A stretch of 32,000 bases of DNA. Origin: Methanothermobacter marburgensis str. Marburg. Lineage in GTDB: Archaea > Methanobacteriota > Methanobacteria > Methanobacteriales > Methanothermobacteraceae. The first letter of the stretch is position 1; every line of letters starts with the position of its first letter. The notes under the pieces are model-generated. The model did no database searches. It was not told the DNA's origin and worked only from the letters and a program-made list of their open reading frames with translations. Where the stretch lies: positions 870,001 through 902,000 of the forward strand of contig NC_014408.1 in assembly GCF_000145295.1 (NCBI RefSeq). Direction: 5' to 3'. Below are positions 10,075-27,532 of the stretch, piece by piece. Both the position numbers and the translations under genes were made by a program.

Positions 10075-10171
10075 GTTCAGTACCCACTAAATGATGTGTG
10101 GAAGTCAGGCTATCCTTGCGTGTGAGTTTGTGTTTGATGATGTTCAGTGCCCCCTAAATGATGTGTGGAAG
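10075..10171. repeat. Two-copy direct repeat (30 nt, period 67). Copy 2 contains the stop codon and last 5 codons of the TPR gene.
   Basis: Copy 1 (10075-10104) is gttcagtacccactaaatgatgtgtggaag and copy 2 (10142-10171) is gttcagtgccccctaaatgatgtgtggaag. They match at 28 of 30 positions. The TPR gene stop (cta on the plus strand) is at 10154-10156. Confidence 0.7.
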
Positions 10172-11404
10172 GAGTAGCAGGATAAAAATGTAGGTTAACA
10201 GTACACAGATCATTATTGTGGAGTGTCTCAGGGCACGTGGATGTCCACCATTTACACGCAGGTAGCATGGCCCAAGAACAAAAAGGATGGAACTCAAAAA
10301 CCCATCAATGTGTTCCAGGGCCCATTCAAAAAGTAAATGCAGGTCTCCGGTTTTCCATGTCATGGTGAGGGTGTACATGACCCTGCTACTCTCCTGTGCC
10401 AGGTATGGCAGGATAAGCGCCATGAGAAGAATCAGCGGCCCGAAGAGGATGGGAAGGGATACTGCTGCCAGGATACGATCCCCTGACTCCTCAGGCTTTA
10501 TCAGTTGCCGGATTGATAGATACAGAAATGCGAATGGGGTGAAAATCAGGGCCCCCAGGACCATTAGCAGTTCACTACGTGGCCTTTCCTTCAGTAATAT
10601 GTATATGGCTGCAGCCGTAAGGGCTCCCATTACCAAGGTGCCCGCAAACTCAGCTCTGAAAATTATCAGTATGAACTGGGCGAGGGTGATTGCCGTGAAG
10701 GCGTATGAGATGACTGTGAGTGCCCTGAAGGGGTATGGGTAGATGGACTCAGGGAGGTCCTCCTCGATGGGGACACCGTTGGCTGTATCAAGTGCTATTT
10801 TAAGACATTTCTCAGAGGCCCATTGGTTCCCGAGTGCCTCAAAAGCCTCTGCCTTGCCGATCCATACCGGGACATTCCCTGCATCCAGCCTGATGGCCCT
10901 ATCAAAGCATTCCAGTGCCTCCCGGTATCTCCCATGTTTATTCAGGGAGAACCCCATGTAGACCCATGATTGGGCATGGAGTGGATCAATGGCTGTGGCC
11001 TTTTCAAATGACTTCAGTGCCCCTTCATCTTCGCCCCACTGGTGAAGTATCAGACCCCTTCCATACCATAGGGTGGCGTTACTGGGGTTCTCATTGATGG
11101 ATGATTCATAGAGTTCAAGGGCCCTCCGGTAACATGCGTCTCTCTCCTCATCCTCCCCGAGGATACTGTGGATGTAGCCCATCTTATGCCAGGCCCGTGG
11201 ATGGGGACTTATTTCCGTCAGTCTCTCAAGGGCCTTCAGGGCATCCCTGTATCTTCCCATATTCTGGTTTATGTTACTCAGGAGCATCCATGCCGCCGGG
11301 TTTTCAGGGTCAGCCTCCGTAACCCTCCTGGCAATGTGGAGGGCCCTCTCAGGGGCACCCCACCCCACCAGAAATTCGGCAACTGCAAGCATGACCCTCT
11401 TCAT
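10154..11404 (-). CDS. TPR-repeat protein with a C-terminal polytopic membrane domain
   Basis: A 416-aa ORF. The N-terminal ~210 aa show repeated TPR-like A..W...G......Y.EA...F..A....P patterns. The C-terminal ~200 aa are hydrophobic, with multiple predicted TM helices. Confidence 0.7.
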   Translation of the reverse strand: MKRVMLAVAEFLVGWGAPERALHIARRVTEADPENPAAWMLLSNINQNMGRYRDALKALERLTEISPHPRAWHKMGYIHSILGEDEERDACYRRALELYESSINENPSNATLWYGRGLILHQWGEDEGALKSFEKATAIDPLHAQSWVYMGFSLNKHGRYREALECFDRAIRLDAGNVPVWIGKAEAFEALGNQWASEKCLKIALDTANGVPIEEDLPESIYPYPFRALTVISYAFTAITLAQFILIIFRAEFAGTLVMGALTAAAIYILLKERPRSELLMVLGALIFTPFAFLYLSIRQLIKPEESGDRILAAVSLPILFGPLILLMALILPYLAQESSRVMYTLTMTWKTGDLHLLFEWALEHIDGFLSSILFVLGPCYLRVNGGHPRALRHSTIMICVLLTYIFILLLLPHII

Positions 11405-11427
11405 AATACATATTCAAATATTAATAA

Positions 11428-11435
11428 TATATAAA
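11428..11435 (-). promoter_or_regulatory. TATA box (TTTATATA) for the TPR-membrane gene, probably giving a leaderless mRNA
   Basis: The reverse complement of tatataaa is TTTATATA. Its centre is about 27 nt upstream of the ATG at 11404, and no SD lies between them. Confidence 0.4.
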
Positions 11436-11496
11436 TGGTGGCTTAAGGATTCCCTGTCCCCCTCCCTGGAATAAACTCCGCAATGCTCTGATACTA

Positions 11497-13620
11497 TTAT
11501 TCTGAACCTTCACCCTCCCCCCTGTGGACAGTCTTGGCCCAGCGCCTCTCGCGCCTCCGTAGCATGTGAACTGTCGCAGCCACAAAGAGCGGGATTAGGT
11601 ATAGGCAGTAGGCCCAGTACTCAATGGATAACAGGATGGTACGGGGTATGCTGTAGCCGTCCATCCTTATACCGCTCATTGTGAGGGGGAAGAACGCCAC
11701 GGTTGATATGAGGCCTATTATGAAGGGGGCCTCCATCCTGAATCCGAAACCAGCAAGGTTCAGAATGAATACAATGTACCCCAGCATGACGAACCCTATG
11801 AAGATCATGGAGAAGAGGTAGAATATGGCGTCAAGCCTCCTGTGGAGTGCTATGGGGGCATCGATCATCGGGGCAAGGTATACGAAGAGTGTCTCCAGGT
11901 TACCTGTGAGCCAGCGGGTCCTCTGCCTGAAGAAGGCCGGCCACTCACTCACGGCCTCCTGGAAGACCTCCGCCTCCGGGGAATACCTGACATGGTAGCC
12001 CCTGAGCATCAGCTTGACGCTGAGATTCAGGTCCTCTGTAACCGCGTAGCCATCCCAGCCACCTATCTCCTCAACAACCCTCCTCTTAACCATCTGGCCG
12101 TTACCCCCAAGGAAGGCAGGTACATCCATGTTCATCCTTGACCTCATGATTACGTTGCCGAATATGGCGAACTCAAGGTCCTGCATCCTGGTGAGGAGGT
12201 TCTCATCTGCATTGTACATCCTCACCCTGGACTGGGCGCCGGCCACATCATCACCATCAAGGTAGGGGACTATATTCCTGAGGAAGTCCGGTTCAACCCT
12301 GGCGTCGGCGTCAAAGACCGCTATGATGTCGCCCTCGGCCAGTGTCACCCCATCGTTTAGGGCGTACCCCTTACCGTTGAAGGCGAAGGGGGCCCTCCTT
12401 GTCACAACCTTCAGGTGCCTGTACCTCTTCACCAGTTCCTCGAGGATCTCACCGGTACGGTCCGTTGACCCGTCGTTCACAACTATGATCTCATAGTTCC
12501 TCCTCCCGTTTACATGGTAGTCCAGGGATGAGAGGGTCTCAACGCACCTCTCAATGGTGTTCTCCTCGTTGTTGGCGGGGACTATAATGCTCACCATGGG
12601 CATTGAATCTGAAACAGGCCTTTCGGGTTTCCTGTAACTGAATGAAAGATGCAGGAGACTGTAGACCACCGGTATGAAGAGTGTGTACATGAGCCAGGTC
12701 ATGCTCCGTGTTATGAAGCCGTAGGCTGCAAGGCCGAGTATCAGCGATGATACAAAGAAGACGCCGGTCTTCTCTATCTTCATCTCCTCAGCCTTGGTGA
12801 CGATGACCTCATGCATCCTCCTTGAGTAGTCCTCCATGTCCCTGATGTTCTGTAGTACCACCTCGATCTCGGCCCTCAGCTGCTCGGTGCTGAAGGGCTT
12901 GAGTAGGTAACCGTAGGGTTCCGTCTCCAGTATCCTGGCGAGGGTCGAGTCATCTGAGTAGGCTGTCAGGTATATTACAGGGATCCCGTGTTCACCCTGT
13001 ATCACCTCAGCGGCCTCTATACCATCCATCTCACCACGGAGGTAGACGTCCATGATGACAACATCGGGCTGGAGTTCCGCGGCCGCTGATACAGCGCCCT
13101 CACCTGTATCCTCAACCCCCACTACCCTGAACCCTGCATCCTCCAGTTTATGGGAGAGGTCGGCTGCGACGATCGCCTCATCCTCCACCACAAGGACACC
13201 GGGGACTGCACCGGTCTTCCTCTCCTTCGGAACCTTCAGGAGGTCCCTTATATCAGCCCTGTACCGTTTGAGGGCTGTTTCAACCGTCACCTTAAGTGTC
13301 CGGTCATCGTAGGGTTTGAGGAGGTAACCGTAGGCCCCGGCCCTCCTGGCCCTCCCTATGGTCTCCGGGTCAGAGTAGGCTGTGAGGAACACCACCGGGA
13401 CCCTGAGTTCCTTCACCCTCCGGGCCACATCCACACCATCCATCTCACCCCTCAGGACTATGTCCATGAGTACAAGGTCCGGCCTCTTCTCTGCTATCAG
13501 CTTAAGGGCCTCTTTACCTGTGGCTGCAACCCCAACGACCCTGTAGCCCATATCCTCCAGTCTCATCTGGAGGTCCGATGCTATGAGTGCCTCATCCTCC
13601 ACTATCAGAATTGACGTCAT
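11497..13620 (-). CDS. Fusion of two response-regulator receiver domains to a membrane-bound processive family-2 glycosyltransferase
   Basis: REC1 reads ILIVEDE...LVLMDIVL...FLTAYSD...YLLKP and REC2 reads VLVVEDE...VVIMDVYL...YLTAYSD...YLLKP. TM helices follow, then a GT2 domain with VNDGSTD, FDADA, VTEDLNLS and RQRTRW (the D,D,D,QxxRW signature). I prefer the ATG at 13620 (SD GAAGGTGAGG, 10 nt after the polX stop) over the ORF-track TTG at 13641. Confidence 0.8.
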   Translation of the reverse strand: MTSILIVEDEALIASDLQMRLEDMGYRVVGVAATGKEALKLIAEKRPDLVLMDIVLRGEMDGVDVARRVKELRVPVVFLTAYSDPETIGRARRAGAYGYLLKPYDDRTLKVTVETALKRYRADIRDLLKVPKERKTGAVPGVLVVEDEAIVAADLSHKLEDAGFRVVGVEDTGEGAVSAAAELQPDVVIMDVYLRGEMDGIEAAEVIQGEHGIPVIYLTAYSDDSTLARILETEPYGYLLKPFSTEQLRAEIEVVLQNIRDMEDYSRRMHEVIVTKAEEMKIEKTGVFFVSSLILGLAAYGFITRSMTWLMYTLFIPVVYSLLHLSFSYRKPERPVSDSMPMVSIIVPANNEENTIERCVETLSSLDYHVNGRRNYEIIVVNDGSTDRTGEILEELVKRYRHLKVVTRRAPFAFNGKGYALNDGVTLAEGDIIAVFDADARVEPDFLRNIVPYLDGDDVAGAQSRVRMYNADENLLTRMQDLEFAIFGNVIMRSRMNMDVPAFLGGNGQMVKRRVVEEIGGWDGYAVTEDLNLSVKLMLRGYHVRYSPEAEVFQEAVSEWPAFFRQRTRWLTGNLETLFVYLAPMIDAPIALHRRLDAIFYLFSMIFIGFVMLGYIVFILNLAGFGFRMEAPFIIGLISTVAFFPLTMSGIRMDGYSIPRTILLSIEYWAYCLYLIPLFVAATVHMLRRRERRWAKTVHRGEGEGSE

Positions 13621-13630
13621 GTCCTCACCT

Positions 13631-15304
13631 TCAGTTACCAAGCCACCTTCTGAGTTTCCTGATGCCCATGGTGTTTATCACATCGTCTGGCTCTGCCCAG
13701 CCACGCCTTGCGGTTATAACACCCCACCTGATGTTCTCAAGGGCACCCCTTGAGTGGGCGTCACTGTTTATTGCGATCCTGCAGCCTGCATCAACCGCCA
13801 TCCTGACATGGGTGTCCCTGAGGTCCAGGCGGAGGGGGTTGGAGTTCACCTCCAGGGCGACTCCCAGTTCAGAGGCGCGTTCAACCACCCTTTCCATGTC
13901 AACCAGGGGGTCAGGTGACCCAAGGACTCGCCCGGTGGGGTGGCCTATTATATCCACAGGGTCATGCTCCATTGCCCTGAGTAGCCTCTCTGTGATGTTC
14001 CCGGGGTCATGGATGCTTGCAACAACCAGGTCAAAGTCCTGCAGAATTTTATCAGGGACCTCGAGGCTCCCATCGTACAGTATGTTGACTTCGACACCTG
14101 CAAGGACCTCAACGTCCTCGATACGCTCGGCGGCCCTGAGGTATGCATCCACATCGTCGATGTACCTTGCATGGTCAGTGAAGGCAATGTACTCCCTCCC
14201 CAGGATGGATGCGTACTCTGCCATGTACTCCATTGCATCGATGCCGTCACTGAAGAGGGTGTGCATGTGGAGGTCCCCCCTGATATCTGAGAGGTTTACA
14301 AGGTCCGGGAGTTTCCCCTCTGCTGCAGCGGCCACCTCGCCACGGTTCTCCCTGAGTTCAGGTTCAATGTATGTGAGGCCAAGGGCCTCCAGAACCTCGG
14401 CCTCTGTCCTCCCGGCGACCCTCTCATCCCCCCTGAAGAGGCCGTATTCACTGAGCTTCATCGAGGAGGAAATGGCTATCCTACGTAGCTCCACGTTGAA
14501 CTCCCATGAGCCTGTGAAGTATAGGAGTGCCGCGCCAAAGACCTCGTCGTCGAAGACCCTGAGGTCACAGTCAAGGCCCTCCCTGAGGCGCACGGTTGAC
14601 TTCTTGGGGCCCTTAACCACTACCTCCTCCACCAGGTCCATGGAGGTGAAGTGGTCCATGACCCTATGGGGGTCGGTGGCTGTCACCAGTATGTCGATGT
14701 CCCCGACGGTCTCCCGGCCCCTCCTTATGGATCCTGCCACCTCAACCCTCCTGACACCCTCAAGTTCAAGGAGCTCTGATTTTATCCTGGATGCCAGGGG
14801 TACCACGTAGGCGAGGGGTCTTCTGGAGATCCTTGACCTTGCAAGTTCAATGTTACGGAGTATCATTGCCTCCTTCTTCTCACCCATCCCCCTGAGTCTC
14901 CTTATACGGTGCCTCCTTGCCTGTTCTTCTAGGTCGTCCAGTGTCTTTATCCCCAGTTCCTCGTAGAGGAGTTTAACCGTCTTTGGACCCACACCCTCCA
15001 CCGAGAGCAGGGAGTCAAGGTCCACCGGGTATTCCCCTGCAAGTCTCTCAAGGAGTGAGAGTGAACCTGTTGATAGTATCTCCTCTATCTTTGCTGCGAT
15101 GTTCTCCCCTATACCGGGGAGTTCCCTGAGTCTTCCCTGGGCTGCCACATCCTCTATGTCCTCCCCGAGAAATTCAACCGTCCTCGCAGCCCTCCTGTAG
15201 GCCTTTGTCCTGAATTCATCGCCCCTGAGTTCCATGTAGTCAGCAACACGGTTCAGAATATGGGCCACCAGATGGTTCTTCATAAGGGCATATATATTGT
15301 GCAT
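13631..15304 (-). CDS. polX: Family X DNA polymerase with a C-terminal PHP domain
   Basis: A 557-aa ORF. HhH motifs (LPGIGENIAAKI, VEGVGPKTVKLL), the catalytic GSIRRGRETVGDIDILV and the PHP motif GDLHMHTLFSDG are all present. The start could instead be the second Met (MKNHL, 15283). Confidence 0.85.
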   Translation of the reverse strand: MHNIYALMKNHLVAHILNRVADYMELRGDEFRTKAYRRAARTVEFLGEDIEDVAAQGRLRELPGIGENIAAKIEEILSTGSLSLLERLAGEYPVDLDSLLSVEGVGPKTVKLLYEELGIKTLDDLEEQARRHRIRRLRGMGEKKEAMILRNIELARSRISRRPLAYVVPLASRIKSELLELEGVRRVEVAGSIRRGRETVGDIDILVTATDPHRVMDHFTSMDLVEEVVVKGPKKSTVRLREGLDCDLRVFDDEVFGAALLYFTGSWEFNVELRRIAISSSMKLSEYGLFRGDERVAGRTEAEVLEALGLTYIEPELRENRGEVAAAAEGKLPDLVNLSDIRGDLHMHTLFSDGIDAMEYMAEYASILGREYIAFTDHARYIDDVDAYLRAAERIEDVEVLAGVEVNILYDGSLEVPDKILQDFDLVVASIHDPGNITERLLRAMEHDPVDIIGHPTGRVLGSPDPLVDMERVVERASELGVALEVNSNPLRLDLRDTHVRMAVDAGCRIAINSDAHSRGALENIRWGVITARRGWAEPDDVINTMGIRKLRRWLGN

Positions 15305-15645
15305 ATTAGTTAACCGTTTTTGCTTTCAGGCAAATGGCAAGGCCCTCAATACAGCCGTATTCTCGTTGGGTGAATAGATGGTTTAAATGCAGATTAAGAT
15401 GCAGAATCTGAGTTGTGGTGAAGAGATTCATCTAGTTTGAAGAAACCACCCTGGGAAATTAAAAAAAGCATTTTATGAATTGATGATTGGACCATTTAAG
15501 TAGAAGACCTCTGATCCATCGAAATATCAGTAAAATCAAATGAAAGGCCAAAATTTAGAGTTCCTGGATTACTGGGAAAAGAACATCAAAAAACTGAATT
15601 TTAGATGCCAGCTATACTCTGGATCAGTTAAAAGATAAAATATGA

Positions 15646-16392
15646 CTAGAGGGACCCCATACCCTCAACGATCTCACGGATCTTATCCTCAACGTTTGAG
15701 CTGTTCTCAACCACAGTACCCGTGACTATGATATCTGCACCTGCACCTGCAACCCTTGCGGCATCTGCACCGGTCCTTATACCGCCGCCCACTATGAGTA
15801 TCTGGTCTGTGCACCTCTTAACAAGGGATATCATCTCCTCAGGCACATGCTGTGGGGCACCTGAACCCGCCTCAAGGTAGAAGAGCCTCATACCAAGGAA
15901 CTCTGCGGCCATGGCATATGCTGCCGCAATGTCCGGCTTGTTTCTGGGAACAGGCTTTGTATCTCCAACCCAGCCCACCGTACCCCCTGGTTCAACCACA
16001 AGGTAACCCATTGGGAGGGCCTCTATCCCCATCTTCTTAACGGCTGGCGCACCCAGGGCCTGGGCACCTATGATCCAGTAGGGGTTGTTTGAGTTGAGGA
16101 GACTCATGAAGAATATCGCATCTGCGTGGCGGCTGACACCTGTGGTGTTCCCAGGGAAAAGTATTATCGGGACATCTATGTTCTCCCTCAGAGCCCCTGC
16201 GGTGGCATCAAGTTCACTGGAATCGGTGGTTGACCCCCCGAGCATTATACCATCGGTACCGCCCCTTATGGCAGCCTCTGCGATTTCAACGGCCTCCTCA
16301 GGGGTCTGCTCCTCAGGGTCGATGAGGGTAAGGTGTATCTTCCTCTCCCCAAGAATATCATGGAAATAATCTTCAACCTTCATTTTGAACAC
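15646..16392 (-). CDS. Geranylgeranylglyceryl phosphate synthase (archaeal lipid biosynthesis, PcrB/GGGPS family)
   Basis: A 248-aa TIM-barrel protein. The segments IHLTLIDPEE, GGTDGIMLGGS, FYLEAGSG and ILIVGGGIR match the GGGPS I know from Methanothermobacter. Confidence 0.9.
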   Translation of the reverse strand: MFKMKVEDYFHDILGERKIHLTLIDPEEQTPEEAVEIAEAAIRGGTDGIMLGGSTTDSSELDATAGALRENIDVPIILFPGNTTGVSRHADAIFFMSLLNSNNPYWIIGAQALGAPAVKKMGIEALPMGYLVVEPGGTVGWVGDTKPVPRNKPDIAAAYAMAAEFLGMRLFYLEAGSGAPQHVPEEMISLVKRCTDQILIVGGGIRTGADAARVAGAGADIIVTGTVVENSSNVEDKIREIVEGMGSL

Positions 16393-16425
16393 TCAGAAAA
16401 GTAATAAATGGGGGAGTGGGGCTGT

Positions 16426-16572
16426 TTAACCCCTTGGTTCCTTTGCCTTGTACCTTAATCCCTTGTAACCGCACTTCCTGCATGTCTTTGCAGTTGGTGG
16501 GTTCCTGGCGTTACATTTAAGGCAGATCTTGATATTGAATAGTCTGTTTTCTGCTTCCTCAAATCTTGCCAT
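16426..16572 (-). CDS. rpl40e: 50S ribosomal protein L40e
   Basis: This gene falls below the ORF-track size cut-off. My translation is [48 protein letters not shown] (48 aa) with a CxxC...CxxC zinc ribbon. The ATG is 2 nt after the tsr3 stop, and its SD GGAGGC lies in the last tsr3 codons. Confidence 0.8.
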
Positions 16573-16574
16573 AA

Positions 16575-17084
16575 TTAGCCTCCTATGTATTTGTTCTGAA
16601 TCTCAACAACCTCACGGCTATCCCTAGCCCGGGAGTAAGCTTCAAGAAGTTCACGGTTGAGGTCCAGGAAGTGTGGACCCCACTTGAAGTAGGACATGAT
16701 GTCAGACGCTATATCTTTCAGTCCAACTATATAAAGGGTTGCCGCCACAGCCTCCGCAGTTGATAGTATGCAGGGCTTTCCATAGTTGGTGGGGTTTGCG
16801 GCCACCAGGAACGGCAGCGACCTGTGGTTCCCTGCGGTCTGGAATATGACCGATGACTTTCTGACCTTTTTCCATGAGCAGTCCAGGGCTGCGATGCCCC
16901 TCCTCATGACCATGTCACGGTCCTCGGGTGAGACTGCCTTCTCAGAAAAAGGGTTGAGGACAAGTGCACCTCTGGGTATCTGGTTGAGACTATTTACTAT
17001 TTTAAATTTTCCCTTCCTCCCCAGTTTGAGGCTGGTGCACTTCTTCCTGTCACACTCCTCTGCATGGTATACCACGATTCTCAT
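16575..17084 (-). CDS. tsr3: Tsr3-like 16S rRNA aminocarboxypropyltransferase (DUF367 with an RLI-type N-terminal motif)
   Basis: A 169-aa ORF. It contains [17 protein letters not shown] and the [16 protein letters not shown] pattern typical of Tsr3/DUF367. Confidence 0.7.
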
Positions 17085-17108
17085 CAGGGTGATATTGGAA
17101 TGTCCATG

Positions 17109-17116
17109 TATAAATA
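17109..17116 (-). promoter_or_regulatory. TATA box (TATTTATA) for the tsr3-rpl40e-GGGPS transcription unit, probably leaderless
   Basis: The reverse complement of tataaata is TATTTATA. It ends 24 nt upstream of the tsr3 ATG (17084), and no SD is present. Confidence 0.4.
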
Positions 17117-17120
17117 ATTT

Positions 17121-17376
17121 GGATGGATAGGGGATCCTAAGTGGTCTGTCCTAGAACATCTCCCTCTCATGCTCCAGATGGTGTTCCGAAGTAACCTCTG
17201 CTAGAACATCTCCCTCTCATGCTCCAGATGGTGTTCCGAAGTAACCTCTGCTAGAACATCTCCCTCTCATGCTCCAGATGGTGTTCCGAAGTAACCTCTG
17301 CTAGAACATCTCCCTCTCATGCTCCAGATGGTGTTCCGAAGTAACCTCTGCTAGAACATCTCCCTCTCATGCTCCA
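17121..17376. repeat. 50-bp tandem array: one degenerate copy, 4 perfect copies and a 26-nt partial copy that forms the 3' end of the chelatase-like gene
   Basis: The unit ctagaacatctccctctcatgctccagatggtgttccgaagtaacctctg occurs at 17151, 17201, 17251 and 17301, all identical. Positions 17351-17376 repeat its first 26 nt and encode ...EHEREMF plus the stop. Positions 17121-17150 are a decayed copy of the unit's distal half. Confidence 0.95.
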
Positions 17377-19342
17377 TTATCCTTGGAACAGCCATGGATG
17401 GGTCCTCAAGGTCATGGAGGTCATAGTAGCTGCCACCTGAGGCCAGGGCTATCTCCATGTTGAGGTCCCTTCCACCCCTTGAGCCCTGCTCAAAGTTTAT
17501 GACAGCGGAGGGTATATCCTCCTCCCTGAGCCTGGCTGCTGCTTCAACCGCCTCCCTCTTGGGGTTCCTCTCAACCCCCACGTTTGGCATACCGTCGCTG
17601 AGGATAACCATGAACGGGACGTACTCGCTGTGTCTCTTCTCCTCCCTGAGTATCTCAAGGCCCCTCTTTATGCCCTGTGCCATTGGTGTTGTACCACCAA
17701 CCCGTATACTGTCCACTGTATCCCTGAATGATGATGCCCGGGCTGTTGAGGGTATTATAACCTTCGCGTCCCTTCCACGGAAACCCACAACACTTATCCT
17801 GTCCTTATGCCTCTGGGCGTCCTCTATGAACCTCTCTATGAGGCCCTTGACCCTGGCGGCCTTCTTCTCAGAGAACATGGACCCGCTTATATCCACCACC
17901 AGGACGATTGATGCCCTTGCACCGTGTTTGCGTATCTTCTCCCTTATATCGCCGGGTTCTATTTTAAGTTCCCCCCTTGAGGCGGCGGCCCTCAGTGTGG
18001 CGTCAACAGCAACGTCACCTGAGCCCCTGGGGAACCTGCTCTTCACGTACCTGCCCTTGATGGTCTTCGACTCAACCCTTGAACCGTAGAGGCGCTCCTT
18101 CTTCTTACCCCTGATCCTGAGGAGCCTCTTTATATCAACGTCCATGTCCTGGGTTTCAGGTTCCCTGCCCTCCACGTCAGCGGCAAGGGCCCCCAGGGAT
18201 GATGCCGAAGGTGAAGCACCTGAATCTCCACTGCTACCTTCCCCCGGTGAACCCTCTGCAGGGGTTTCATCCTCTTCACCCTCACCTGGGCCACTTCCTG
18301 AGTCACCACTTTCTGATTCAGACTCTCTTTCACGCTCCATCTCCTCACGGGCCCTCTGCATCTCCCTTCTCGTGTTTTCACGGTTATAGGTCCTTCCAGG
18401 TATTCTCTCCCCCAGAACCAGTATTATTGCATCCTCGACGTCCTCCTCACGGACCCTCCTCCTGCCGTTGAAGGCCGCTATGGCCTTTGAGGTCCTCACG
18501 ATTGCAATATCGGACCTGTGCCCATCGACCCCTGCATCGACACAGACCCTTGCTATCAGCTCAAGGAGGTCGTCGTCAATGGTGACCGCTGGAAGGAGCT
18601 TCCTGGCCTCCATTATCCTCTCCCTGAGTTCCCGCTGACTTTCAGCGAACCTCTCAACGAATCCCTCAGGGTCATCCTCGAATTCATCCCTCCGCTTCAT
18701 TATGAGGATTCTCTGCCTGATGTCGGTGACCGTGCCAACATTTATGTGTATACCTATCCTGTCTGAGAGCTGGGGCCGGAGTTCGCCCTCAGCGGGGTTC
18801 ATGGTCCCAACCAGGATGAACCTTGATGGGTGCTGAAGGGATATTCCCTCCCTCTCAACTGTGTTCACACCGTAGGCAGCCGCATCAAGCAGGACATCCA
18901 CCAGGTGGTCGTCCAGTAGGTTTATCTCGTCAACGTAGAGTATGTTCCTGTTGGCCTCTGCAAGTATACCCGGCTCAAGGGCCTTTATACCCTCTGTGAG
19001 AGCCTTCCCTATGTCAAGGGAACCCACAACCCGGTCCTCTGTTGCACCCAGTGGTAGCTCAACCACCCGCATCTTCCGGTACTCCACCTCCAGGTCACCT
19101 GAACGGCACACCTCACATGCCTCTTCAGGTTCATCAGGGTCGCAGTTGAAGGGGCAGCCCTTAACTGTCCGCAGTGATGGAAGAAGGTCTGCCAGGGCCC
19201 TCACGGCGGTTGTTTTACCTGTCCCCTTATCACCCTTTATGAGTACACCGCCTATCCTGGGATTTATTGCATTGAGTATAAGGGCCTTTTTCACCCTTTC
19301 CTGTCCAACTATAGCTGTGAATGGAAAAATAAGGTTCTTCAT
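17351..19342 (-). CDS. Mg-chelatase-like ChlI/ChlD fusion protein (AAA+ module, acidic linker, vWA domain)
   Basis: A 663-aa ORF. Walker A is GDKGTGKT, a Cys cluster reads GCPFNCDP...CEVC, and Walker B is [10 protein letters not shown] long acidic Glu/Ser/Gly linker is followed by a vWA domain ([10 protein letters not shown]...GGTTP...ILSDG). Confidence 0.8.
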
Positions 19343-19403: not shown

Positions 19404-19503
19404 GTGGAATGGTATTAAAATGGGGTTCTGGTTTAGGAATCAATCTGGATATGGTGGATGATGGTATTAAAATAGGGGTCCGGGGTAGGAATCCCTCTGG
19501 ATA
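19404..19503. repeat. Two diverged ~50-bp tandem copies in the divergent promoter region between the chelatase-like gene and the Zn-ribbon gene
   Basis: Copy 1 is gtggaatggtattaaaatggggttctggtttaggaatcaatctggata (19404-) and copy 2 is gtggatgatggtattaaaataggggtccggggtaggaatccctctggata (19454-). Identity is roughly 80-85%. Each copy carries a TATA-like TATTAAAAT. Confidence 0.6.
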
Positions 19504-19568
19504 AAGTAGATAAGGGATGCCAAAGATAAATTGAGCTGGTGATAGATATGTGCACTGTTGGAGGTCCA

Positions 19569-19706: not shown

Positions 19707-20183
19707 GTGAGTGGTCTGGAATTCAATCTGAGGGATGACAGGATACTCTTTGTGGAGTCGGATTCAGGTACACTTGGCATAATACCGTCCGGCAGGAGGA
19801 GAACCCTCTTCATGAATACCCCAGATGACGAGGTCGCCCTGTTTCTTGAACCAGATGACCTCATAGTCATATCCGCATTCAGCTCAGGGGAAAAGGCAAG
19901 GAGGGGTATAATGGCCCTCGCCTACCTCCTCCTTGAGATAGAAAATCCCCTTGTTGTTCTCCCTGAGAACCATCCAGGGTCCAGGAGGCTGAAGATGGTG
20001 GTCTCTGCCTCAGATACAATAAGACTGAGCTGCGAGATAACCCCTGGCACCCACCCGGACCACCACCTGCTCTGCTCGGTGAGTGAACTCTCAGGGATGG
20101 AGATAGTCTCGGAGAATGGCCTGGTTAAACTCTTAAACACGCCACCGGGTATCAGGTCGCGGGTGACAAAACTTGAGTGGTGA
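19707..20183 (+). CDS. Hypothetical protein (158 aa), family not recognised
   Basis: The ORF has normal local codon composition and is tightly coupled to the upstream Zn-ribbon ORF. I see no motif I can name. Confidence 0.5.
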   Translation: MSGLEFNLRDDRILFVESDSGTLGIIPSGRRRTLFMNTPDDEVALFLEPDDLIVISAFSSGEKARRGIMALAYLLLEIENPLVVLPENHPGSRRLKMVVSASDTIRLSCEITPGTHPDHHLLCSVSELSGMEIVSENGLVKLLNTPPGIRSRVTKLEW

Positions 20184-20186
20184 GGC

Positions 20187-20390
20187 GGGAAAACTATTTT
20201 TAAGTACACCCACATAAACCATCAATGTGAATATGATCAACGAATTCTATCAGGGAAACTATTTTTAAGTACACCCACATAAACCATCAACGTGAATGAT
20301 TATGATCAACGAATTCTATCAGGGAAACTATTTTTAAGTACACGCACATAAACCATGAACGTGAATGATTATGATCAACGAATTCTATCA
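20187..20390. repeat. Tandem triplication (66 + 69 + 69 bp) of the promoter and first 9 codons of the DUF116 gene
   Basis: The copies start at 20187, 20253 and 20322. The unit is gggaaactatttttaagtacacccacataaaccatcaacgtgaatgattatgatcaacgaattctatca, with only a few substitutions or indels between copies. Copy 3 runs into the real CDS (ATG at 20365). Confidence 0.9.
20331..20338 (+). promoter_or_regulatory. TATA-like box (TTTTTAAG, preceded by GAAAC) about 30 nt upstream of the DUF116 ATG. Identical boxes lie at 20197-20204 and 20262-20269.
   Basis: The spacing fits an archaeal TATA-to-TSS distance and a near-leaderless mRNA. No SD precedes the ATG at 20365. Confidence 0.4.
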
Positions 20391-21063
20391 GATATTCGGG
20401 CAGCTGGTATTCATCGCGGGTCTGGGCCTCATTGTGATGCTAGCCTCAAGCCTATTCCTTGGGAGGCTCCTTCTCAATGAGGACCGGTTGATATTTCCCA
20501 GACTCCTCCTTATCACAGTGGACATGTTCTACGGTCCATTCAAGAAGTTCTCAGAGACACTGGGACTCAACAGCCGCATAGTGGACCAGATAGGGGTTGA
20601 GGTGAGGAACAAGATCAACGAGAAGAGGTTCCGGTCAATAGACCCCCATGAAAAGGCACTCGTGTTGCCCCACTGCCTCAGAAACCCAAAATGTGAGGCA
20701 AGGCTTGACAGGACAGGGCTTGTCTGCACGGGGTGCAACCGCTGCATAATAGGTAAGATCAAGGAGCGGGCCGAGAGCATAGGGTACACAGTATTCGTGA
20801 TACCGGGGTCAACCTTCATAAAGAAGATAATGGAGGAGCGTAGGTTCAAGGCGGTCCTCGGGGTGGCCTGCTACCAGGACCTCAACCTGGCCATGATGAA
20901 GCTCTCAAGGTTCACACCACAGGGTGTCCCCCTCCTCAGGGACGGGTGCTTCAAGACAAAGGTGGACTTCAGGGCCGTCCTCGAGAAGATGGGGCTTGAA
21001 GGTGAGATGAGAAGACCACGTGGTTGCATGAACCAGGTACCCGAGAAAACCCTGGAGCGGTGA
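20365..21063 (+). CDS. DUF116-family Cys-rich membrane-anchored protein
   Basis: A 232-aa ORF with an N-terminal TM helix. The segment [32 protein letters not shown]...VFVIPGSTF...[10 protein letters not shown] matches my recollection of DUF116 (COG1852). Confidence 0.6.
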
Positions 21064-21067
21064 TAGA

Positions 21068-21901
21068 TTGGACATACCAATCACCGATAACCACATACAC
21101 GTTGACCCCATCAACGGCGAGGGACCGAAAGCCGTGGCCCTTAAATTTCAGAGGTCCGGTGGTAGGAGGATGATAATCCCCAACAAGCCATCCTGGACCA
21201 TAAACGCCGGCACAGACTACAAAAAAACCATGGATACGGTGCTTAAGTACGCTGACATCATCAACCATGAGACAGAGGTTGAAGCATATGCTGTGGTGGG
21301 ACTCCACCCGGCGGAGCTATCAAGGCTCCTTGAGGCCGGTCACGACCCTGAGAGGGGCGAGGAGATGATAAGGGAGGGCCTGGAATATGCCCAGTCACTG
21401 GTCCTTGAGGGGAGGGCCGTTGCAATAGGTGAGGTTGGAAGACCCCACTACCCTGTCCCCGCTGAGGAGATGGCCATCCACAACAGGCTGATGGTGTATG
21501 CCATGGAACTTGCAGCCGAGGCCTCATGTCCTGTGCAGCTCCACACCGAGACCTCAGGACCTGAAGAGTTCAGGGAATTCGCAGGGATGGCCTCTAAGGC
21601 AGGTATAAAGAAGCATATGGTCATAAAGCACTTCTCCGGTCCCCTGACAGGAAGGGATGAGAACCATGGACTCACACCATCCCTCATTGCATCCGGGGAT
21701 GTCATAAGGGAGGGTATCAGGAAGGGGTCATGCTTCCTCATGGAAACCGATTACCTAGATGATAGCAGCAGACCCGGCGCGGTCCTCGGACCCAAGACCG
21801 TCCCACGGAGGACAATTGAATTCCTGAATAAGGGGATCTTCACCGAGGAGGACGCCTACAGGATACACCAGGAGACCGTTGAAAGGGTATACGGTTTATA
21901 A
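21068..21901 (+). CDS. TatD-related metal-dependent hydrolase (TIM-barrel amidohydrolase superfamily)
   Basis: A 277-aa ORF with a TTG start 4 nt after the DUF116 stop. It contains ITDNHIHVDP (the HxH motif), AIGEVGRP, VQLHTE and VIKHFSG. Confidence 0.65.
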   Translation: MDIPITDNHIHVDPINGEGPKAVALKFQRSGGRRMIIPNKPSWTINAGTDYKKTMDTVLKYADIINHETEVEAYAVVGLHPAELSRLLEAGHDPERGEEMIREGLEYAQSLVLEGRAVAIGEVGRPHYPVPAEEMAIHNRLMVYAMELAAEASCPVQLHTETSGPEEFREFAGMASKAGIKKHMVIKHFSGPLTGRDENHGLTPSLIASGDVIREGIRKGSCFLMETDYLDDSSRPGAVLGPKTVPRRTIEFLNKGIFTEEDAYRIHQETVERVYGL

Positions 21902-21984
21902 ATCGCCAAGTTCTGACCTCAGAGGTACTCAATGAAATCATATATCACACCCTCGCCTATGGTTTATAAATCGCCAAGTTCTGA
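21893..21984. repeat. Two-copy 24-nt direct repeat (period 68). Copy 1 contains the last 2 codons and stop of the TatD-like gene.
   Basis: ggtttataaatcgccaagttctga occurs at 21893-21916 and again, identically, at 21961-21984. The TAA stop is at 21899-21901. Confidence 0.75.
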
Positions 21985-22063
21985 ACCACCGTTAATTTTA
22001 TGGATAAAGCATTTCAGGAAAAATAAAATCTGTTAAACTTTTGCATCTACAAAAAAATCTTTT

Positions 22064-22642: not shown

Positions 22643-22674
22643 CTCTGATCATCCATCATTTCAGTCAATGAGGG

Positions 22675-23868
22675 CTAACCCCTCCCCAGTTCACTGTGCG
22701 CACGTGCAAGGTGACCTGCTGCAAGGGCACCCATGAGGGATAGTTCACCTGCAAGGACAGCTCCCCCAACGATCTCTGCAAACTCATGTACACCCCCTGA
22801 ACCCCGGACACCCATGATATCAAGACACTCGGATGCCGTCTCAAGTCCCGTGCCACCACCAACAGTTGCGAGGGGCACATCAGGGAGGTTGACTGAGAAG
22901 TAAAGGTCACCGTTTTTCTCCTCTGCAACGGTAACCCCGAGGCTACCTTCAACAATATGGGCCTCATCCTGTCCAGTTGCAAGGAATATGGCGCCTATTA
23001 TGTTGGCGTAGTGGGCATTGAATCCCATGCTCCCAGCGAGGGCTGATCCCAGGAGGTTCTTTGCGGTGTTAACCTCAACAACAGCCTCTGGTGTTGTCTT
23101 GAGGACCCTCTCAACCATCTCCCCGGGTACAGTTACCTCTGCACTGATGCTCTTACCCCGACCCTCAACCAGGTTTATGGATGCTGGTTTCTTGTCGGTG
23201 CAGAGGTTTCCGCTCAGGGCAATCACATGGGCGCCTGTCTCCTCTGTGAGGAGCTCAAGGGCCTTCTCTGTGGCGATGGTGACCATGTTCATCCCCATGC
23301 TATCACCTGTTGTGTAGACGAACCTGGGGTAAACGTAGGGCCCCGCCACGATGATGGGATCTATCTTTATGAGTTTTCCGTGCCTCGTTGTTGACTCCGC
23401 CTCCTCCCTGAGGGCATCAATGTTCTCCTGGATCCATTCCCTGAGCTTTAAGGCCTCAACAACAGAACCAGTCCTTATTACAGGGGCCCTTGTCATAGAG
23501 TCACCGGTTATTCTGACAGATGCACCCCCGCACCCTGTGATCACCGAGCAACCCCTGTTCACAGAGGCCACCAGTGCACCCTCTGAGGTTGCAAGGGGTA
23601 CATAATACTCGCCGTCTGCATGTTCACCCTTAACCAGCAGTGGCCCAGCAACCCCCAGGGGAATCTGAACGGCGCCTATGGGGTTTTCAATGTTCCTCCT
23701 TGACGCCCTATCCATGTCAATTGTATAGTGGGATACATGCTCAAGTCTGGCACCTGAGACCCTCTCAATGAACTCCCTTCTTATCCTGACAGCCTCATCA
23801 ACAGGTACGTGCCTTTCAATTTCATAGAGCTTTATCTTACCCTCAAGGAGGTCATCCATGAGTGACAT
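22675..23868 (-). CDS. hmgA: Hydroxymethylglutaryl-CoA reductase (class I, archaeal mevalonate pathway)
   Basis: A 397-aa ORF. It contains ENPIGAVQIPLGVAGPL, VPLATSEGALVAS, TGDSMGMNMV and DKKPASINLVEGRGKS. Confidence 0.9.
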   Translation of the reverse strand: MSLMDDLLEGKIKLYEIERHVPVDEAVRIRREFIERVSGARLEHVSHYTIDMDRASRRNIENPIGAVQIPLGVAGPLLVKGEHADGEYYVPLATSEGALVASVNRGCSVITGCGGASVRITGDSMTRAPVIRTGSVVEALKLREWIQENIDALREEAESTTRHGKLIKIDPIIVAGPYVYPRFVYTTGDSMGMNMVTIATEKALELLTEETGAHVIALSGNLCTDKKPASINLVEGRGKSISAEVTVPGEMVERVLKTTPEAVVEVNTAKNLLGSALAGSMGFNAHYANIIGAIFLATGQDEAHIVEGSLGVTVAEEKNGDLYFSVNLPDVPLATVGGGTGLETASECLDIMGVRGSGGVHEFAEIVGGAVLAGELSLMGALAAGHLARAHSELGRG

Positions 23869-24737
23869 CAGAGAGCCCCCTCCATGCGCCTGAGTTCCCT
23901 GACTATGGCGGATGGCCTGTCAACAACCACTGCACCTGCGGCTTCAAGGGCCTCCCTTTTACTCTGCGCGGTTCCTGCACCGCCCTCTATGATGGCCCCT
24001 GCATGGCCCATCCTCTTACCTGGAGGTGCAGTTGAGCCTGAGATGAAGGCAAAGACCGGCTTTGACATGTGGTCACCTATGTACTCTGCGGCCCTCTCCT
24101 CTGCGTCTCCCCCTATTTCACCTATGAGGACAACTGCGTCGGTCTGGGGGTCTTCCTCAAACCTCTCAAGGACATCCACAAATCCCAGGCCAGTGACAGG
24201 GTCGCCCCCTATCCCCACACATGTGCTCTGGCCGAAGCCCGCCTCTGTGAGCTGGGCAGCGAATTCATAGGTCAGTGTCCCGCTCCTTGAGACTATCCCT
24301 ATGTTGCCCTCGGTGAAAATGTTTGTGGGCATTATACCCAGTTTACCAACACCGGGGGTTATTATACCAGGTGTGTTGGGCCCTATAACTGTCTTACCCA
24401 TCCTTTCAGCGTATTCCATTATCTGCATTGAGTCATGGACCGGTATGTGCTCTGTTATTATAACCACAAGGTCAAGGTGCCTTATGGACTCAAAGGCCGC
24501 GTCCTTGGCAAAGGGGGCCGGTACGAAGATTATGGATGCATTGACATCCATCTCCTCCCTGACCTCCTCAACCGAGTTGTAGACGCCGAGGCCAAGGAAC
24601 TCCTGGCCGCCCTTACCAGGTGTCACGCCGGCCACTATCCTTGTTCCGTATTCAAGCATCTGTTCTGTATGAAATGATCCCTGTTTACCTGTTATGCCCT
24701 GAACCAGGCATCTGGTATCCTCATCAAGCAGTATCAT
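23868..24737 (-). CDS. sucD: Succinyl-CoA synthetase alpha subunit (CoA-binding/ligase-CoA family)
   Basis: The sequence [23 protein letters not shown]...SRSGTLTYE...GIGGDP...MGHAGAI includes the catalytic His loop. I place the start at ATG 24737 (SD GAGGGGA) rather than the ORF-track start at 24893. The stop shares one nucleotide with the hmgA ATG. Confidence 0.9.
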
Positions 24738-24861
24738 GATAAATCCCCTCAATACTATGTTGTTAAAATCTAAAATACTTGGTGATAATGAATCATTTAA
24801 CCCACCCCGTGGATCCCATAATACGTCAAGCGGACCATCGGAATCCCTACCATGCAGAGGT

Positions 24862-25599
24862 TCAGACCATAAGTATTCTTGTTCTCTCCTCAAATGGCAC
24901 CGAAAGGTCGATGAGGTTTCCGTTGAGGAATGCCGTTGCAGAGACTATTACACTTCCGGGTATCACATGTGAGGGTGAGCCCCTCCTTACAAGGTACACG
25001 TTCTTGTGTCCAAGGGCTGCCCCCAGCATTGCCCCTGCCACGACCCCGACACTCTCCATGTCCTCTATGGTCGCCACAACAACAGGGTCATCGGTCTTAT
25101 CTGAAACGTAACCCACTCCTGGAATCCTGCGGACCCCTGGTTTGATCTCCTGGCTCACATCTGTAACTCCATCCATCCCGCCGGCAGCCTGTATGGCTGA
25201 ATTTGCAACATCAGCCACGAATTCTTCACCACCATAGGTGTCAAATGCCAGTATAACTGCATCAGGGTAACGATCCTGCCTCACAAGTGCCTCTGCATAG
25301 GATATACCCTCGCCTGCACCGTCAGGTTCATCTGATATCCCCTCAAGGTCGCCGAGGTTCTCTGATGAGTCCCTGAGTATCTCAACTATTGCCCTGTTCA
25401 CGTCCTCCAGCATATCATCCTCTACAAATGCACTTATAACCACATCGTCGCCTGTTATGTTTGTGAGTGCTGCGCTCTCTGCACCCGCGTCAAGGAGACC
25501 TGGTATCGAGGCCTCCAGTGCATTTATAAGTTCCCTGCTGCAGCTTGTATCATTATCTGATATATCTGCACCTATGGAAGTTATCCTCAAATCAATCAC
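24862..25599 (-). CDS. Conserved-looking acidic hypothetical protein (245 aa), family not recognised
   Basis: A long ORF with normal codon composition. The start is GTG at 25599 or TTG at 25590. I see no motif I can name. Confidence 0.5.
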
Positions 25600-25795
25600 C
25601 TGATACCTAATTTGAGGTGCGGGAATAAATAGGTTACAGCAGAACCCTGTGGAATGTGGAAGTTCCTGAGTACTGCCGCTTATGATAGAAATAGACGCAC
25701 CTCACCCATGCAAAATTTAATTACCAGAAATAACATATAGAAGTTAGTGTAAACTATTGGTTCTCGAGACTCCACAAACTAAGGAGAAATAATTA

Positions 25796-26461
25796 ATGGA
25801 AACCATGATCTGTGTCCCCATCTTTGAAAGGACATGTGAAGCTGTTATCAAATCCGCAGAAAGGGCCATAGAGGCCGGAGCCGATATCCTGGAGCTCAGA
25901 ATAGACGCCCTCAAAGGGGCATCGGGGGCTGAGGTGAAAGGGGTCATAGAGGATATTGGCTTTCCTGTAATAGCAACAAACAGGTCCCCCACGGAGGGGG
26001 GCCACTTCAGTGGCACTGAAACTGAAAGGATAGAACTCCTGAGCTCCGCTGCCGAGGTGGCCCTCTATGTTGATGTTGAACTCAGCACCGACCCTGAGTA
26101 CATCGAGAGGGTCACGGCAGTTGCCGCCGGGAGCATCATATCCTACCATAACTTCACCGGGACACCATCACTTGAGGCCCTTCTGAGGATAGTCCGGATG
26201 GAGAAGGAATTTGGGGACATTGCAAAGGTGGCGGTCATGCCCCGGAACATGGCAGACACCATCGTGGTTCTCCAGCTGCTCTCGGTGGAAGACAATACAA
26301 TAGCAATATCCATGGGGGAAGCCGGGAAATACACGAGGGTCGCAGCTGCCCTCTTCGGTGCCCCAATAACCTTTGCATCAGCGGACCGTTCAACAGCACC
26401 AGGACAGATGGACGTCCGTATCACCAGGAAAATGATTGATGAACTCATGCCGGAGGATTGA
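25796..26461 (+). CDS. aroD: Type I 3-dehydroquinate dehydratase
   Basis: A 221-aa ORF with SD AAGGAG 9 nt upstream. It contains ICVPI, DILELRID, IATNR, SYHNF and AKVAVMP, the last carrying the Schiff-base Lys context. Confidence 0.85.
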   Translation: METMICVPIFERTCEAVIKSAERAIEAGADILELRIDALKGASGAEVKGVIEDIGFPVIATNRSPTEGGHFSGTETERIELLSSAAEVALYVDVELSTDPEYIERVTAVAAGSIISYHNFTGTPSLEALLRIVRMEKEFGDIAKVAVMPRNMADTIVVLQLLSVEDNTIAISMGEAGKYTRVAAALFGAPITFASADRSTAPGQMDVRITRKMIDELMPED

Positions 26462-26463
26462 AG

Positions 26464-27075
26464 ATGAAGAAGGTTCTGATTATCCTTGCAGTGCTTGTCA
26501 TCGCTTTTGCAGGTGCATTTTACTATACTGAGAACGCCAATTCGGTTGATATCACAATAAAGACTGACGGGGTTAACATCACGGTCGAGGCAGACACCAT
26601 ATTCTTCCAGAAAACTCCACCTGAGATGGAGCAGAAGATCGGTGAATACATGGCGGACGTCATCAACGACCCTGACAGTACCGTTGAAACGATAAAGGCC
26701 AATGTCACAGAGATAGCAAAGAGTTACGGCTACAGTAAGGTTGATGTGACCATTGAGTCACAGTTCGGTGTTGACCAGCTCCCCATGCCAGCCGTTGTGA
26801 GCGGTGACTCCATGTACCCGACGCTCAGAGATGGGCAGGAACTCATAGTGCTCAAGACAGACGACTACAAGGTTGGGGATATAGTTATAGCCAAGCACCC
26901 AGAGTATGGCCTCATCGTGAAGAGGGTGGGTAAGATAGAGCCCACCAGGGTGTACCTAATGAGTGACAACAAGAAGGTTGAGCGCATCTACACACCAACA
27001 TCGGTGATTGTCAGGACACCACTCAACACATGGGTTCCGAAGTCAGCCATTGTGGGTGTTGTGAAGAAGTACTGA
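26464..27075 (+). CDS. Signal peptidase I-like (S26/S24 family) membrane-anchored serine peptidase
   Basis: An N-terminal TM helix (VLIILAVLVIAFAGAFYY) is followed by VVSGDSMYPTLRDGQ...GDIVI...IVKRV. I prefer the ATG at 26464 (7 nt after GGAGG) over the ORF-track TTG at 26458. Confidence 0.7.
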   Translation: MKKVLIILAVLVIAFAGAFYYTENANSVDITIKTDGVNITVEADTIFFQKTPPEMEQKIGEYMADVINDPDSTVETIKANVTEIAKSYGYSKVDVTIESQFGVDQLPMPAVVSGDSMYPTLRDGQELIVLKTDDYKVGDIVIAKHPEYGLIVKRVGKIEPTRVYLMSDNKKVERIYTPTSVIVRTPLNTWVPKSAIVGVVKKY

Positions 27076-27154
27076 AAACCCACACACCTACTCCCTACCT
27101 TTTCTACAATACTGAAACCCCAAACCTCCTCCCTAACCTTTCTACGTTTTCTAC
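27070..27154. repeat. Diverged ~40-bp tandem duplication. Copy 1 contains the stop codon of the peptidase gene.
   Basis: Copy 1 is tactgaaaacccacacacctactccctaccttttctaca (27070-27108) and copy 2 is tactgaaaccccaaacctcctccctaacctttctacg (27110-27146), followed by an extra ttttctac. Identity is roughly 80%. Confidence 0.5.
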
Positions 27155-27196
27155 TTGCCTGGAACGATGATGCTGATGAAGAAACCTGTCATGAGG

Positions 27197-27532
27197 ATCA
27201 GTGAAGTTGTTTTGAACGTCTGCATCATTGCTGAACTCACAGCTCTATTCACATCAGTGAAGTTGTTTTGAACGTCTGCATCATTGCTGAACTCACAGCT
27301 CTATTCACATCAGTGAAGTTGTTTTGAACGTCTGCATCATTGCTGAACTCACAGCTCTATTCACATCAGTGAAGTTGTTTTGAACGTCTGCATCATTGCT
27401 GAACTCACAGCTCTATTCACATCAGTGAAGTTGTTTTGAACGTCTGCATCATTGCTGAACTCACAGCTTTATTCACATCAGTGAAGTTGTTTTGAACGTC
27501 TGCATCATTGCTGAACTCACAGCTTTATTCAC
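27197..27532. repeat. Six-copy 56-bp tandem array in a convergent intergenic region
   Basis: The unit atcagtgaagttgttttgaacgtctgcatcattgctgaactcacagctctattcac starts at 27197, 27253, 27309, 27365, 27421 and 27477. Copies 1-4 are identical. Copies 5 and 6 share one C-to-T change (agctttattcac). There are no unique spacers. Confidence 0.95.

Follow-up and report, generated by a model that had tools for sequence, protein, structure and literature searches.

Gene-terminus repeats in Methanothermobacter marburgensis as probable by-products of lineage-wide duplication in non-essential DNA

Tandem duplications are a hallmark of rad27/FEN1 deficiency in yeast. They have also been recorded among the spontaneous mutations of the pyrE gene of Sulfolobus acidocaldarius (PMC3139894). 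In the Mycobacterium tuberculosis complex, the rnc-fpg1 spacer contains 279–358 bp of variable tandem repeats that end at the fpg1 start codon, while the same spacer measures 1–54 bp in other mycobacteria (PMC2734929). The variable-number tandem repeats (VNTRs) of that complex (ETR-F/VNTR3239, MIRU-VNTR) are the closest described analogue of the repeats reported here, which lie in a 32,000-nucleotide stretch of Methanothermobacter marburgensis str. Marburg (NC_014408.1, positions 870,001 to 902,000; this whole stretch is referred to as the window) and many of which copy the end or the start of a neighbouring gene into the adjoining spacer. Common to both systems are lineage-specific, head-to-tail repeats of 40–100 bp that inflate spacers which are short in relatives, abut or overlap the start or stop of a gene and differ in copy number from isolate to isolate. 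The MIRUs form a dispersed family whose related sequences occupy 41 loci, whereas in the window each locus has its own, locally derived unit. The repeats of the window are best filed as lineage-specific intergenic VNTR-type duplications, and their gene-terminus echoes are likely to be by-products of a lineage-wide duplication process in non-essential DNA, the overlap with gene ends being a matter of geometry.

Repeats were detected with Tandem Repeats Finder and a direct-repeat search, and the open reading frames (ORFs) were read against the sequence. The same neighbourhood was compared across about 25 other assemblies with 82–100% identity to the window, a set comprising the complete genomes CP042937.1 (L083) and CP043480.1, several metagenome-assembled genomes (MAGs) and Logan, ENA and JGI contigs (compared loci are cited by L numbers). 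Tandem Repeats Finder returned four arrays of period ≥30 within the 32-kb window, and the direct-repeat search added the remaining sites. The layout is as follows, with the strand given where a feature has one.

10075..10104, site 1, R1, the 30-bp copy farther from the TPR gene, within the spacer where the permease gene (stop at 10068) and the TPR gene converge (direct-repeat search: 10075–10104/10142–10171, 30 nt, 93%, spacing 67)
10105..10141, site 1, unique 37-bp filler that separates R1 and R2
10142..10171, minus strand, site 1, proximal 30-bp copy R2, with the last 5 codons and the stop (10154–10156) of the TPR gene and 12 nt downstream
17130..17376, minus strand, site 2, a degenerate distal unit (17130–17150) and 4.5 perfect 50-bp units (Tandem Repeats Finder: 17151–17376, period 50, 4.5 copies, 100%)
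19409..19512, site 2b, 2 x 52 bp diverged duplication in the spacer that precedes the chelatase-like gene and holds divergent promoters, without a terminus (direct-repeat search: 19409–19460/19461–19512, 52 nt, 79%)
20187..20391, plus strand, site 3, start region of the DUF116 gene in triplicate (65/69 bp), each copy with a TATA-like box, 5' leader, ATG and 7 codons (Tandem Repeats Finder: 20191–20391, period 69, 3.0 copies, 94%)
21890..21918, plus strand, site 4, proximal 29-bp copy R1, with the last 3 codons and the stop of the TatD gene and 17 nt (direct-repeat search: 21890–21916/21958–21984, 27 nt, 96%, spacing 68)
21919..21957, site 4, unique 39-bp filler that separates R1 and R2
21958..21987, site 4, distal 30-bp copy R2
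27070..27149, site 5, 2 x ~40 bp diverged duplication whose start lies one codon ahead of the S24 peptidase stop (Tandem Repeats Finder: 27070–27145, period 38–40, 2 copies, 84%)
27152..27252, minus strand, 3'-terminal relic of a 511-aa MFS transporter gene (ending in VNRAVSSAMMQTFKTTSLILMTGFFISIIVPGK and the stop), matching the C-terminus in L107
27197..27533, site 6, 6 x 56 bp near-perfect array derived from the MFS gene relic, without a functional gene terminus (Tandem Repeats Finder: period 56, 6.0 copies, 99%)

All seven repeats listed in the initial annotation of this DNA, which had been made from the sequence alone, were recovered where it had placed them, together with their overlaps with gene ends or a gene start; the 2 x 52 repeat upstream of the chelatase-like gene and the 6 x 56 array are among them. 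The site 2 unit, for which four perfect 50-mers after the stop and last 7 codons had been described, was found to join the stop and about 7.7 codons (26 nt) of the chelatase-like gene to 24 nt of the spacer downstream; the true gene end is the last, partial copy. The 40-mer of site 5, where an echo of the peptidase stop had been observed, begins one codon ahead of the S24 peptidase stop and occupies a former convergent spacer of about 12 bp between the S24 peptidase and MFS transporter genes. The threefold presence of the DUF116 promoter and ATG also held, with 7 codons in each copy instead of the 9 reported; the two upstream copies encode only an 11-codon ORF (MINEFYQGNYF and a stop), and the extra copies may thus add potential promoters and this upstream ORF. 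The echoes of the TPR and TatD genes had been taken for tandem duplications of period 67 and 68. The stop and 5 codons of the former and the stop and last 3 codons of the latter are repeated at those spacings, but only about 30 bp recurs at either site, so that the full 67–68 bp period of a VNTR is not repeated. Sites 2, 2b, 3, 5 and 6, on the other hand, are head-to-tail copies of native sequence, and the single-copy alleles of relatives hold the whole unit. The view that these repeats differ from microsatellite-type slippage was borne out.

The regular presence of stop or start codons in the repeats had been read as a sign either of a mutational process targeted to transcription-unit boundaries or of selection for multiplied boundary signals. 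It was compared with a placement model in which a duplication is tolerated anywhere except wholly within a coding sequence and is otherwise placed uniformly, so that P(terminus included) = 1-(I-L+1)/(I+L-1), where I is the length of the ancestral spacer and L the duplicated length. Of 14 independent events, counted over the window and its relatives, 8.9 were expected to include a terminus and 8 were observed (P(≥8) = 0.85); for the window alone the expectation was 5.2, and 5 of 7 events included one. The five terminus-containing sites of the window lie in ancestral spacers of 18, 66, 46, 94 and 12 bp, and since these are mostly shorter than the duplicated units (30–69 bp), inclusion of a gene end was certain or likely. 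The events without a terminus were the 2 x 52 repeat in a divergent promoter spacer of 154 bp, a 68 x 3 array in a spacer of 133 bp (L091/L092), an insertion in a 217-bp spacer of L091, an event in a 108-bp spacer of L100, a 65 x 2.4 array in a duplicated Big_5 gene fragment of M. wolfeii and the 6 x 56 array in the relic of the deleted MFS gene. Targeting, which might stem from breaks, or from stalling of the polymerase, at terminators or promoters, could be seen in the eight terminus-containing events, seven of which include a stop codon, and in a 55-bp event at PcrB that takes in the stop in spite of a long spacer. Nevertheless, the number of such events agrees with what geometry predicts, no terminus is involved in six events (among them those in the gene relic and the pseudogene fragment), the unit borders reach 1 to 8 codons into the gene, so that their distance from the stop or start differs from site to site, and no common sequence or structure was found. 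A targeted process is considered highly improbable, and the regular presence of a stop or start is probably the survivorship expected in a compact genome, rather than the outcome of targeting or selection.

Copy number, whose comparison between strains had been proposed as a check, was found to be polymorphic at sites 2, 3, 5 and 6 among strains that are 93–98% identical to each other. The gene-end segment of site 2 is present in five copies in the window, three in five loci (including the two complete genomes), two in L001 and one in strains of the L081/L082 type, where the C-terminus MEHER[E/A]MF of the chelatase-like protein, followed by the stop, is native. Site 3 has three copies in the window and in L084 (a MAG), two in L107 (a JGI metagenome contig) and one in six loci (L001, L083, L085, L091, L092 and L094). 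Similarly, site 5 has two copies in close strains and one in L001, and site 6 has six in the window versus one in L091, L092 and L001. The site 2b duplication occurs in L001 and in all close strains and is absent from the L081/L082 type, and the site 1 block is identical in all 10 other loci that carry the TPR gene. Site 4 is present in the close strains L091–L093 and in L107, with extra substitutions in R2 of L091 and L107; L001 lacks the filler, a single repeat being joined directly to the shared downstream sequence. Three stretches that are single-copy in the window are repeated in relatives.

15600..15655, minus strand, 55-bp stretch with the PcrB stop, 2 codons and downstream spacer, duplicated in L083, L085, L090, L091 and L092
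25620..25650, target of about 25–33 bp, duplicated around a filler in L091
29977..30051, stretch homologous to the 68 bp present three times in L091/L092

The array of L091/L092 at window ~29977–30051 is perfect (100% identity) and purely intergenic, and the 66-bp insertion of L091 at window ~25620 lies in a divergent promoter spacer, includes no terminus and is absent from the window, L092 and L001. In an indel survey that compared the window with five relatives, all length differences of ≥40 bp belonged to these spacer events, and the coding regions differed by in-frame indels of 6–9 bp only. In M. wolfeii, part of the 5' region of the Big_5 gene has a second copy upstream of that gene (L110, 17527–17743 / 18408–18499), and this fragment contains the perfect 65 bp x 2.4 array. 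Two Kamchatka MAG contigs (L095, 11813–11907, and L096, 10071–10147) both terminate in two perfect copies of a 47-bp repeat, where a further tandem array has probably interrupted the assembly.

The perfection of some units (100% and 99%) could suggest that the arrays arose in assembly or amplification, the more so as short-read contigs break at the 56-mer and site 2 arrays: three of them inside the first 56-mer unit, and L087 at window 17181. However, two complete genomes, MAGs and JGI, ENA and Logan contigs share these arrays, down to the internal order of their variants, an example being the JGI metagenome contig L103, which holds at least 4.3 copies of the 56-mer in the variant order of the window. 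Older array copies, moreover, carry substitutions common to several strains. Since arrays with one variant order recur in independent assemblies, as do six of the seven listed repeats, an artefact is hardly conceivable, in agreement with the initial annotation.

Selection for extra promoters, terminators or 3'-end structures fared little better than targeting. The site 3 unit has a complete TATA-like box, leader and ATG and could add promoters, and the 2 x 52 repeat upstream of the chelatase-like gene has been kept since the split from L001. Against this, copy number is one in many close strains with intact genes, and because the extra arrays are single-copy or absent there, they are not required boundary signals. 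The largest array (6 x 56) lies in dead DNA, and array turnover outpaces point substitutions, which is the behaviour of a neutral VNTR. Oligo-T terminator tracts are missing from the units, and fold z-scores against shuffles ranged from -2.2 to +0.9 among the units and fillers tested (+0.3 for the site 2 unit), the filler of L091 being the only one to fold better than its shuffles, marginally (z = -2.15). No unit or filler reached the gathering score of any Rfam family, as a terminator or cis-acting RNA might have done. Additionally, units and fillers of different sites were unrelated in sequence and shared no motif, in which they do not resemble a dispersed family of the MIRU kind; the only cross-site similarity was an 11-nt match of marginal significance that rests on a common hexamer. 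Multiplied boundary signals are very unlikely to have been what selection retained.

Two further resemblances were followed. The junctions of sites 2 and 4 share GTTCT(2–5 nt)CAGAGGT(0–1 nt)ACT immediately after the gene end (17190–17357, minus strand; 21910–21929), but this was discounted as a motif, as the pattern had been selected after the fact and the window contains CAGAGG 51 times; the shared sequence is probably due to chance. The units of about 67 bp were also considered as C/D-box small RNAs and rejected, the C and D boxes being on opposite strands and the sole Rfam hit being SNORD100 (E = 2).

The abundance of arrays, noted earlier as unusual, is indeed so for the family: four arrays in 32 kb compare with 1.65 arrays of period ≥30 per 100 kb in Methanobacterium loci (1.39 Mb), and the Methanothermobacter loci together, which include redundant strains, have 5.6 per 100 kb. 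No array was returned by Tandem Repeats Finder in the more distant Methanothermobacter loci L081, L082, L086, L088, L089 and L097–L101, and array density is thus lineage-specific within Methanothermobacter. The arrays are real, polymorphic between strains, restricted to a lineage and confined to spacers and dead DNA, and they match the geometric expectation.

A neutral course of events would account for these properties. Segments of 40–69 bp would be duplicated head to tail across non-essential DNA, and once two copies exist, their number would drift rapidly up or down, as in a VNTR or minisatellite. Duplications wholly inside a gene would be purged by selection. A duplication straddling a stop would be tolerated, the first copy remaining as an intact gene end, and one straddling a promoter and start would be tolerated likewise, the last copy remaining as an intact gene start. 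With short ancestral spacers, nearly every surviving duplication would include a gene end. As to the molecular cause, replication-associated strand slippage or flap misprocessing may be favoured, because the junctions of plain duplications that can be read from single-copy and array alleles show only 0–2 nt of microhomology. The likeness to the S. acidocaldarius pyrE and yeast rad27 duplications lies in short native tandem duplications, with little or no flanking homology, that arise in replication; those are laboratory mutations within a selected gene, whereas the present ones are fixed in natural strains and seen where selection permits.

Several observations weigh against this neutral duplication account. 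The event sizes are 40, 44, 50, 52, 55, 56, 57, 60, 65, 66, 67, 67, 68, 68 and 69 bp, with a mode at 65–69 bp and none above 69 bp, although the searches could detect longer periods. Neither the ceiling nor the mode is predicted by generic slippage, and neither the 69-bp ceiling nor the filler-containing class treated below is known from the pyrE and rad27 systems. Five events contain unique filler beyond a plain duplication. The 55-bp PcrB event includes the stop in spite of a spacer of 341 bp, for which the prior was only 0.27. Within the site 2 unit, conservation between strains is higher for the 26 gene-derived nucleotides than for the 24 from the spacer, a difference tentatively attributed to fast spacer divergence and to array turnover seeded from the selected proximal copy. 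Furthermore, the placement model assumes that duplications straddling a terminus are as harmless as purely intergenic ones, and the 14 independent events come from about 45 kb of one genomic neighbourhood rather than from a whole genome.

The events fall into two structural classes. Plain tandem duplications (class A) include sites 2, 2b, 3, 5 and 6 of the window and, in relatives, the 55-, 68-, 65- and 44-bp events. Repeat-filler-repeat insertions (class B) are the following five.

Site 1, repeat 30 bp, filler 37 bp, total 67 bp
Site 4, repeat 29/30 bp, filler 38/39 bp, total 68 bp
L091, repeat 25–33 bp, filler 33–41 bp, total 66 bp
Mre11 stop/Rad50 start (L095, with a diverged orthologue in L083), repeat 20–24 bp, filler 43–47 bp, total 67 bp
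L100, repeat 28 bp, filler 32 bp, total 60 bp

The insertion between Mre11 and Rad50 (L095, 4043–4129; L083, 18470–18540) extends Mre11 by one codon, up to a new stop, and moves the two genes apart; they overlap by 4 bp in the outgroup L097. Because plain duplication cannot make a unique filler, class B needs a second step or a second mechanism. Derivation of the filler from a diverged copy of the flank was rejected (local and semi-global alignments against shuffles, p = 0.25–0.99; p > 0.6 at site 1), as were a patchwork of nearby DNA (no excess of shared 6–8-mers within ±200 bp) and a hairpin or miniature element (one of the five fillers folds better than shuffles, weakly). One-sided homologous recombination with the TatD downstream spacer of a divergent strain found no support for site 4, the spacers of L001, L108 and M. 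wolfeii being unrelated to its filler. No filler had a match longer than about 15 nt in the compared loci outside its own orthologous position, nor any match in phage, plasmid, viral-contig or metagenome collections. Most genuine CRISPR spacers are also without matches. At site 1, polarisation failed, the TPR gene (10154–11404) being absent beside the permease gene in all outgroups. As no TPR gene lies between the permease gene and the glycosyltransferase or PolX gene in the distant relatives L097–L100, it would be a lineage-specific insertion, with the site 1 repeat at its border.

The geometry of sites 1 and 4, where direct repeats of about 30 bp flank a unique insert of spacer length (37–39 bp), is CRISPR-like. 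The CRISPR repeat of M. thermautotrophicus is presumably 30 bp long, and a search with a presumed repeat sequence gave no hit. To our knowledge, no other mechanism gives a target duplication of about 30 bp around an insert of about 37 bp. Ectopic spacer integration by Cas1-Cas2 was hence considered for class B (sites 1 and 4 and three events in relatives), a reading that is compatible with the neutral duplication account. CRISPR-1 of M. thermautotrophicus spans about 8 kb with 123 spacers, hence a unit of about 65–66 bp (PMC1635066, PMC4613674), and the five class B events total 60, 66, 67, 67 and 68 bp, to be set beside a unit of about 66 bp in the genus. Off-target integration by Cas1-Cas2 that seeds new arrays has a precedent in E. 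coli (Nivala et al. 2018, as cited in 10.1101/148544). The neo-CRISPR loci resemble sites 1 and 4 in having a target duplication of repeat length around one insert of spacer length; the total length here also equals the unit length of the genus's CRISPR arrays. The insertion polarity is clear for the L091 event, site 4 is absent from L001, and the fillers are unrelated to their flanks or to nearby DNA.

Other properties speak against integration. The lack of any filler match in the phage, plasmid, viral and metagenome collections is one; another is that the repeat length varies (20–24, 25–33, 28, 29–30 and 30 bp) while the total is constant. Plain duplications of native sequence share the size of 65–69 bp, which points to a common ruler unrelated to CRISPR. 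Four events in about 45 kb would amount to more than 100 per genome, a very high figure for off-target integration, and the repeats gave no CRISPR-DR hit in Rfam even at E ≤ 10, matching no known direct-repeat family there. The class B loci thus differ from neo-CRISPR loci in the absence of a detected protospacer, in variable repeat length, in having only two repeats per locus and in high apparent frequency. That they are natural footprints of off-target Cas1-Cas2 integration, with two-repeat seeds surviving in spacers and gene ends, is unlikely, although it deserves tentative consideration. In a weaker variant, a ruler of about 67 bp, of whatever nature, would lie behind both the class B insertions and the plain duplications of 65–69 bp.

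The surroundings of sites 5 and 6 have a history of their own. The 511-aa MFS transporter gene is intact in L107 (16139–17674), where it ends inside the second copy of site 5, fragmented in L001 (1660–2400) and deleted in the window, where the last ~30 codons are left. The match to L107 identified the 56-bp unit as part of this C-terminal relic, and an alternative assignment as the start of a small membrane-protein gene was rejected. The spacer that separates the S24 peptidase gene from the M48 peptidase gene (window 27152–27634) is a hot spot of structural change.

The compact window holds genes for an amino-acid permease, a TPR protein, a response-regulator glycosyltransferase, PolX, PcrB, Tsr3, a chelatase-like AAA/VWA protein, DUF116, TatD, VIT1, HMG-CoA reductase, the S24 peptidase and the M48 peptidase. 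From 8785 to 17125 it is 96–98% identical to L081, L082, L086, L088 and L089, and on either side only ~82–86%; this block, bordered by the spacer upstream of the permease gene and by the site 2 spacer, looks like a recombination or transfer tract. Left of the permease gene (1–8571) lies a defence-island-like cluster (SNF2/NOV_C helicase, DUF1156 methyltransferase-like protein, DUF499), which is absent from CP042937.1 (L083), where a 427-aa protein, YbjQ and NurA-HerA-Mre11-Rad50 are encoded instead. The helicase is read as two ORFs in different frames in the window (5357–7681 and 7687–8571) and as a single 1071-aa ORF in L084. The response-regulator glycosyltransferase (11497–13641) is one 714-aa ORF in the window and is divided into 2–3 ORFs in its orthologues in L082, L084, L085 and L087, which suggests pseudogenisation or sequencing frameshifts. 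Between PolX and PcrB, the loci L086, L097 and L108 carry a gene for an 853-aa UvrD-family helicase where the window has a 341-bp spacer (15305–15645).

If class B did arise by Cas1-Cas2 integration and were equally frequent genome-wide, this lineage would hold about a hundred CRISPR seeds per genome and would offer a natural system for the birth of CRISPR arrays and for the host cost of off-target adaptation. The DUF116 promoter and start alleles, with one to three copies, may serve as natural material on archaeal promoter dosage. The lineage is common in thermophilic digesters and biomethanation reactors, and its fast-evolving VNTRs of 40–69 bp could serve strain typing; such intergenic VNTRs also explain contig breaks in short-read assemblies. 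In compact genomes, gene-end echoes are predicted by neutral duplication together with purifying selection, and since this prediction needs nothing further, an overlap of repeats with gene termini should always be tested against spacer length.

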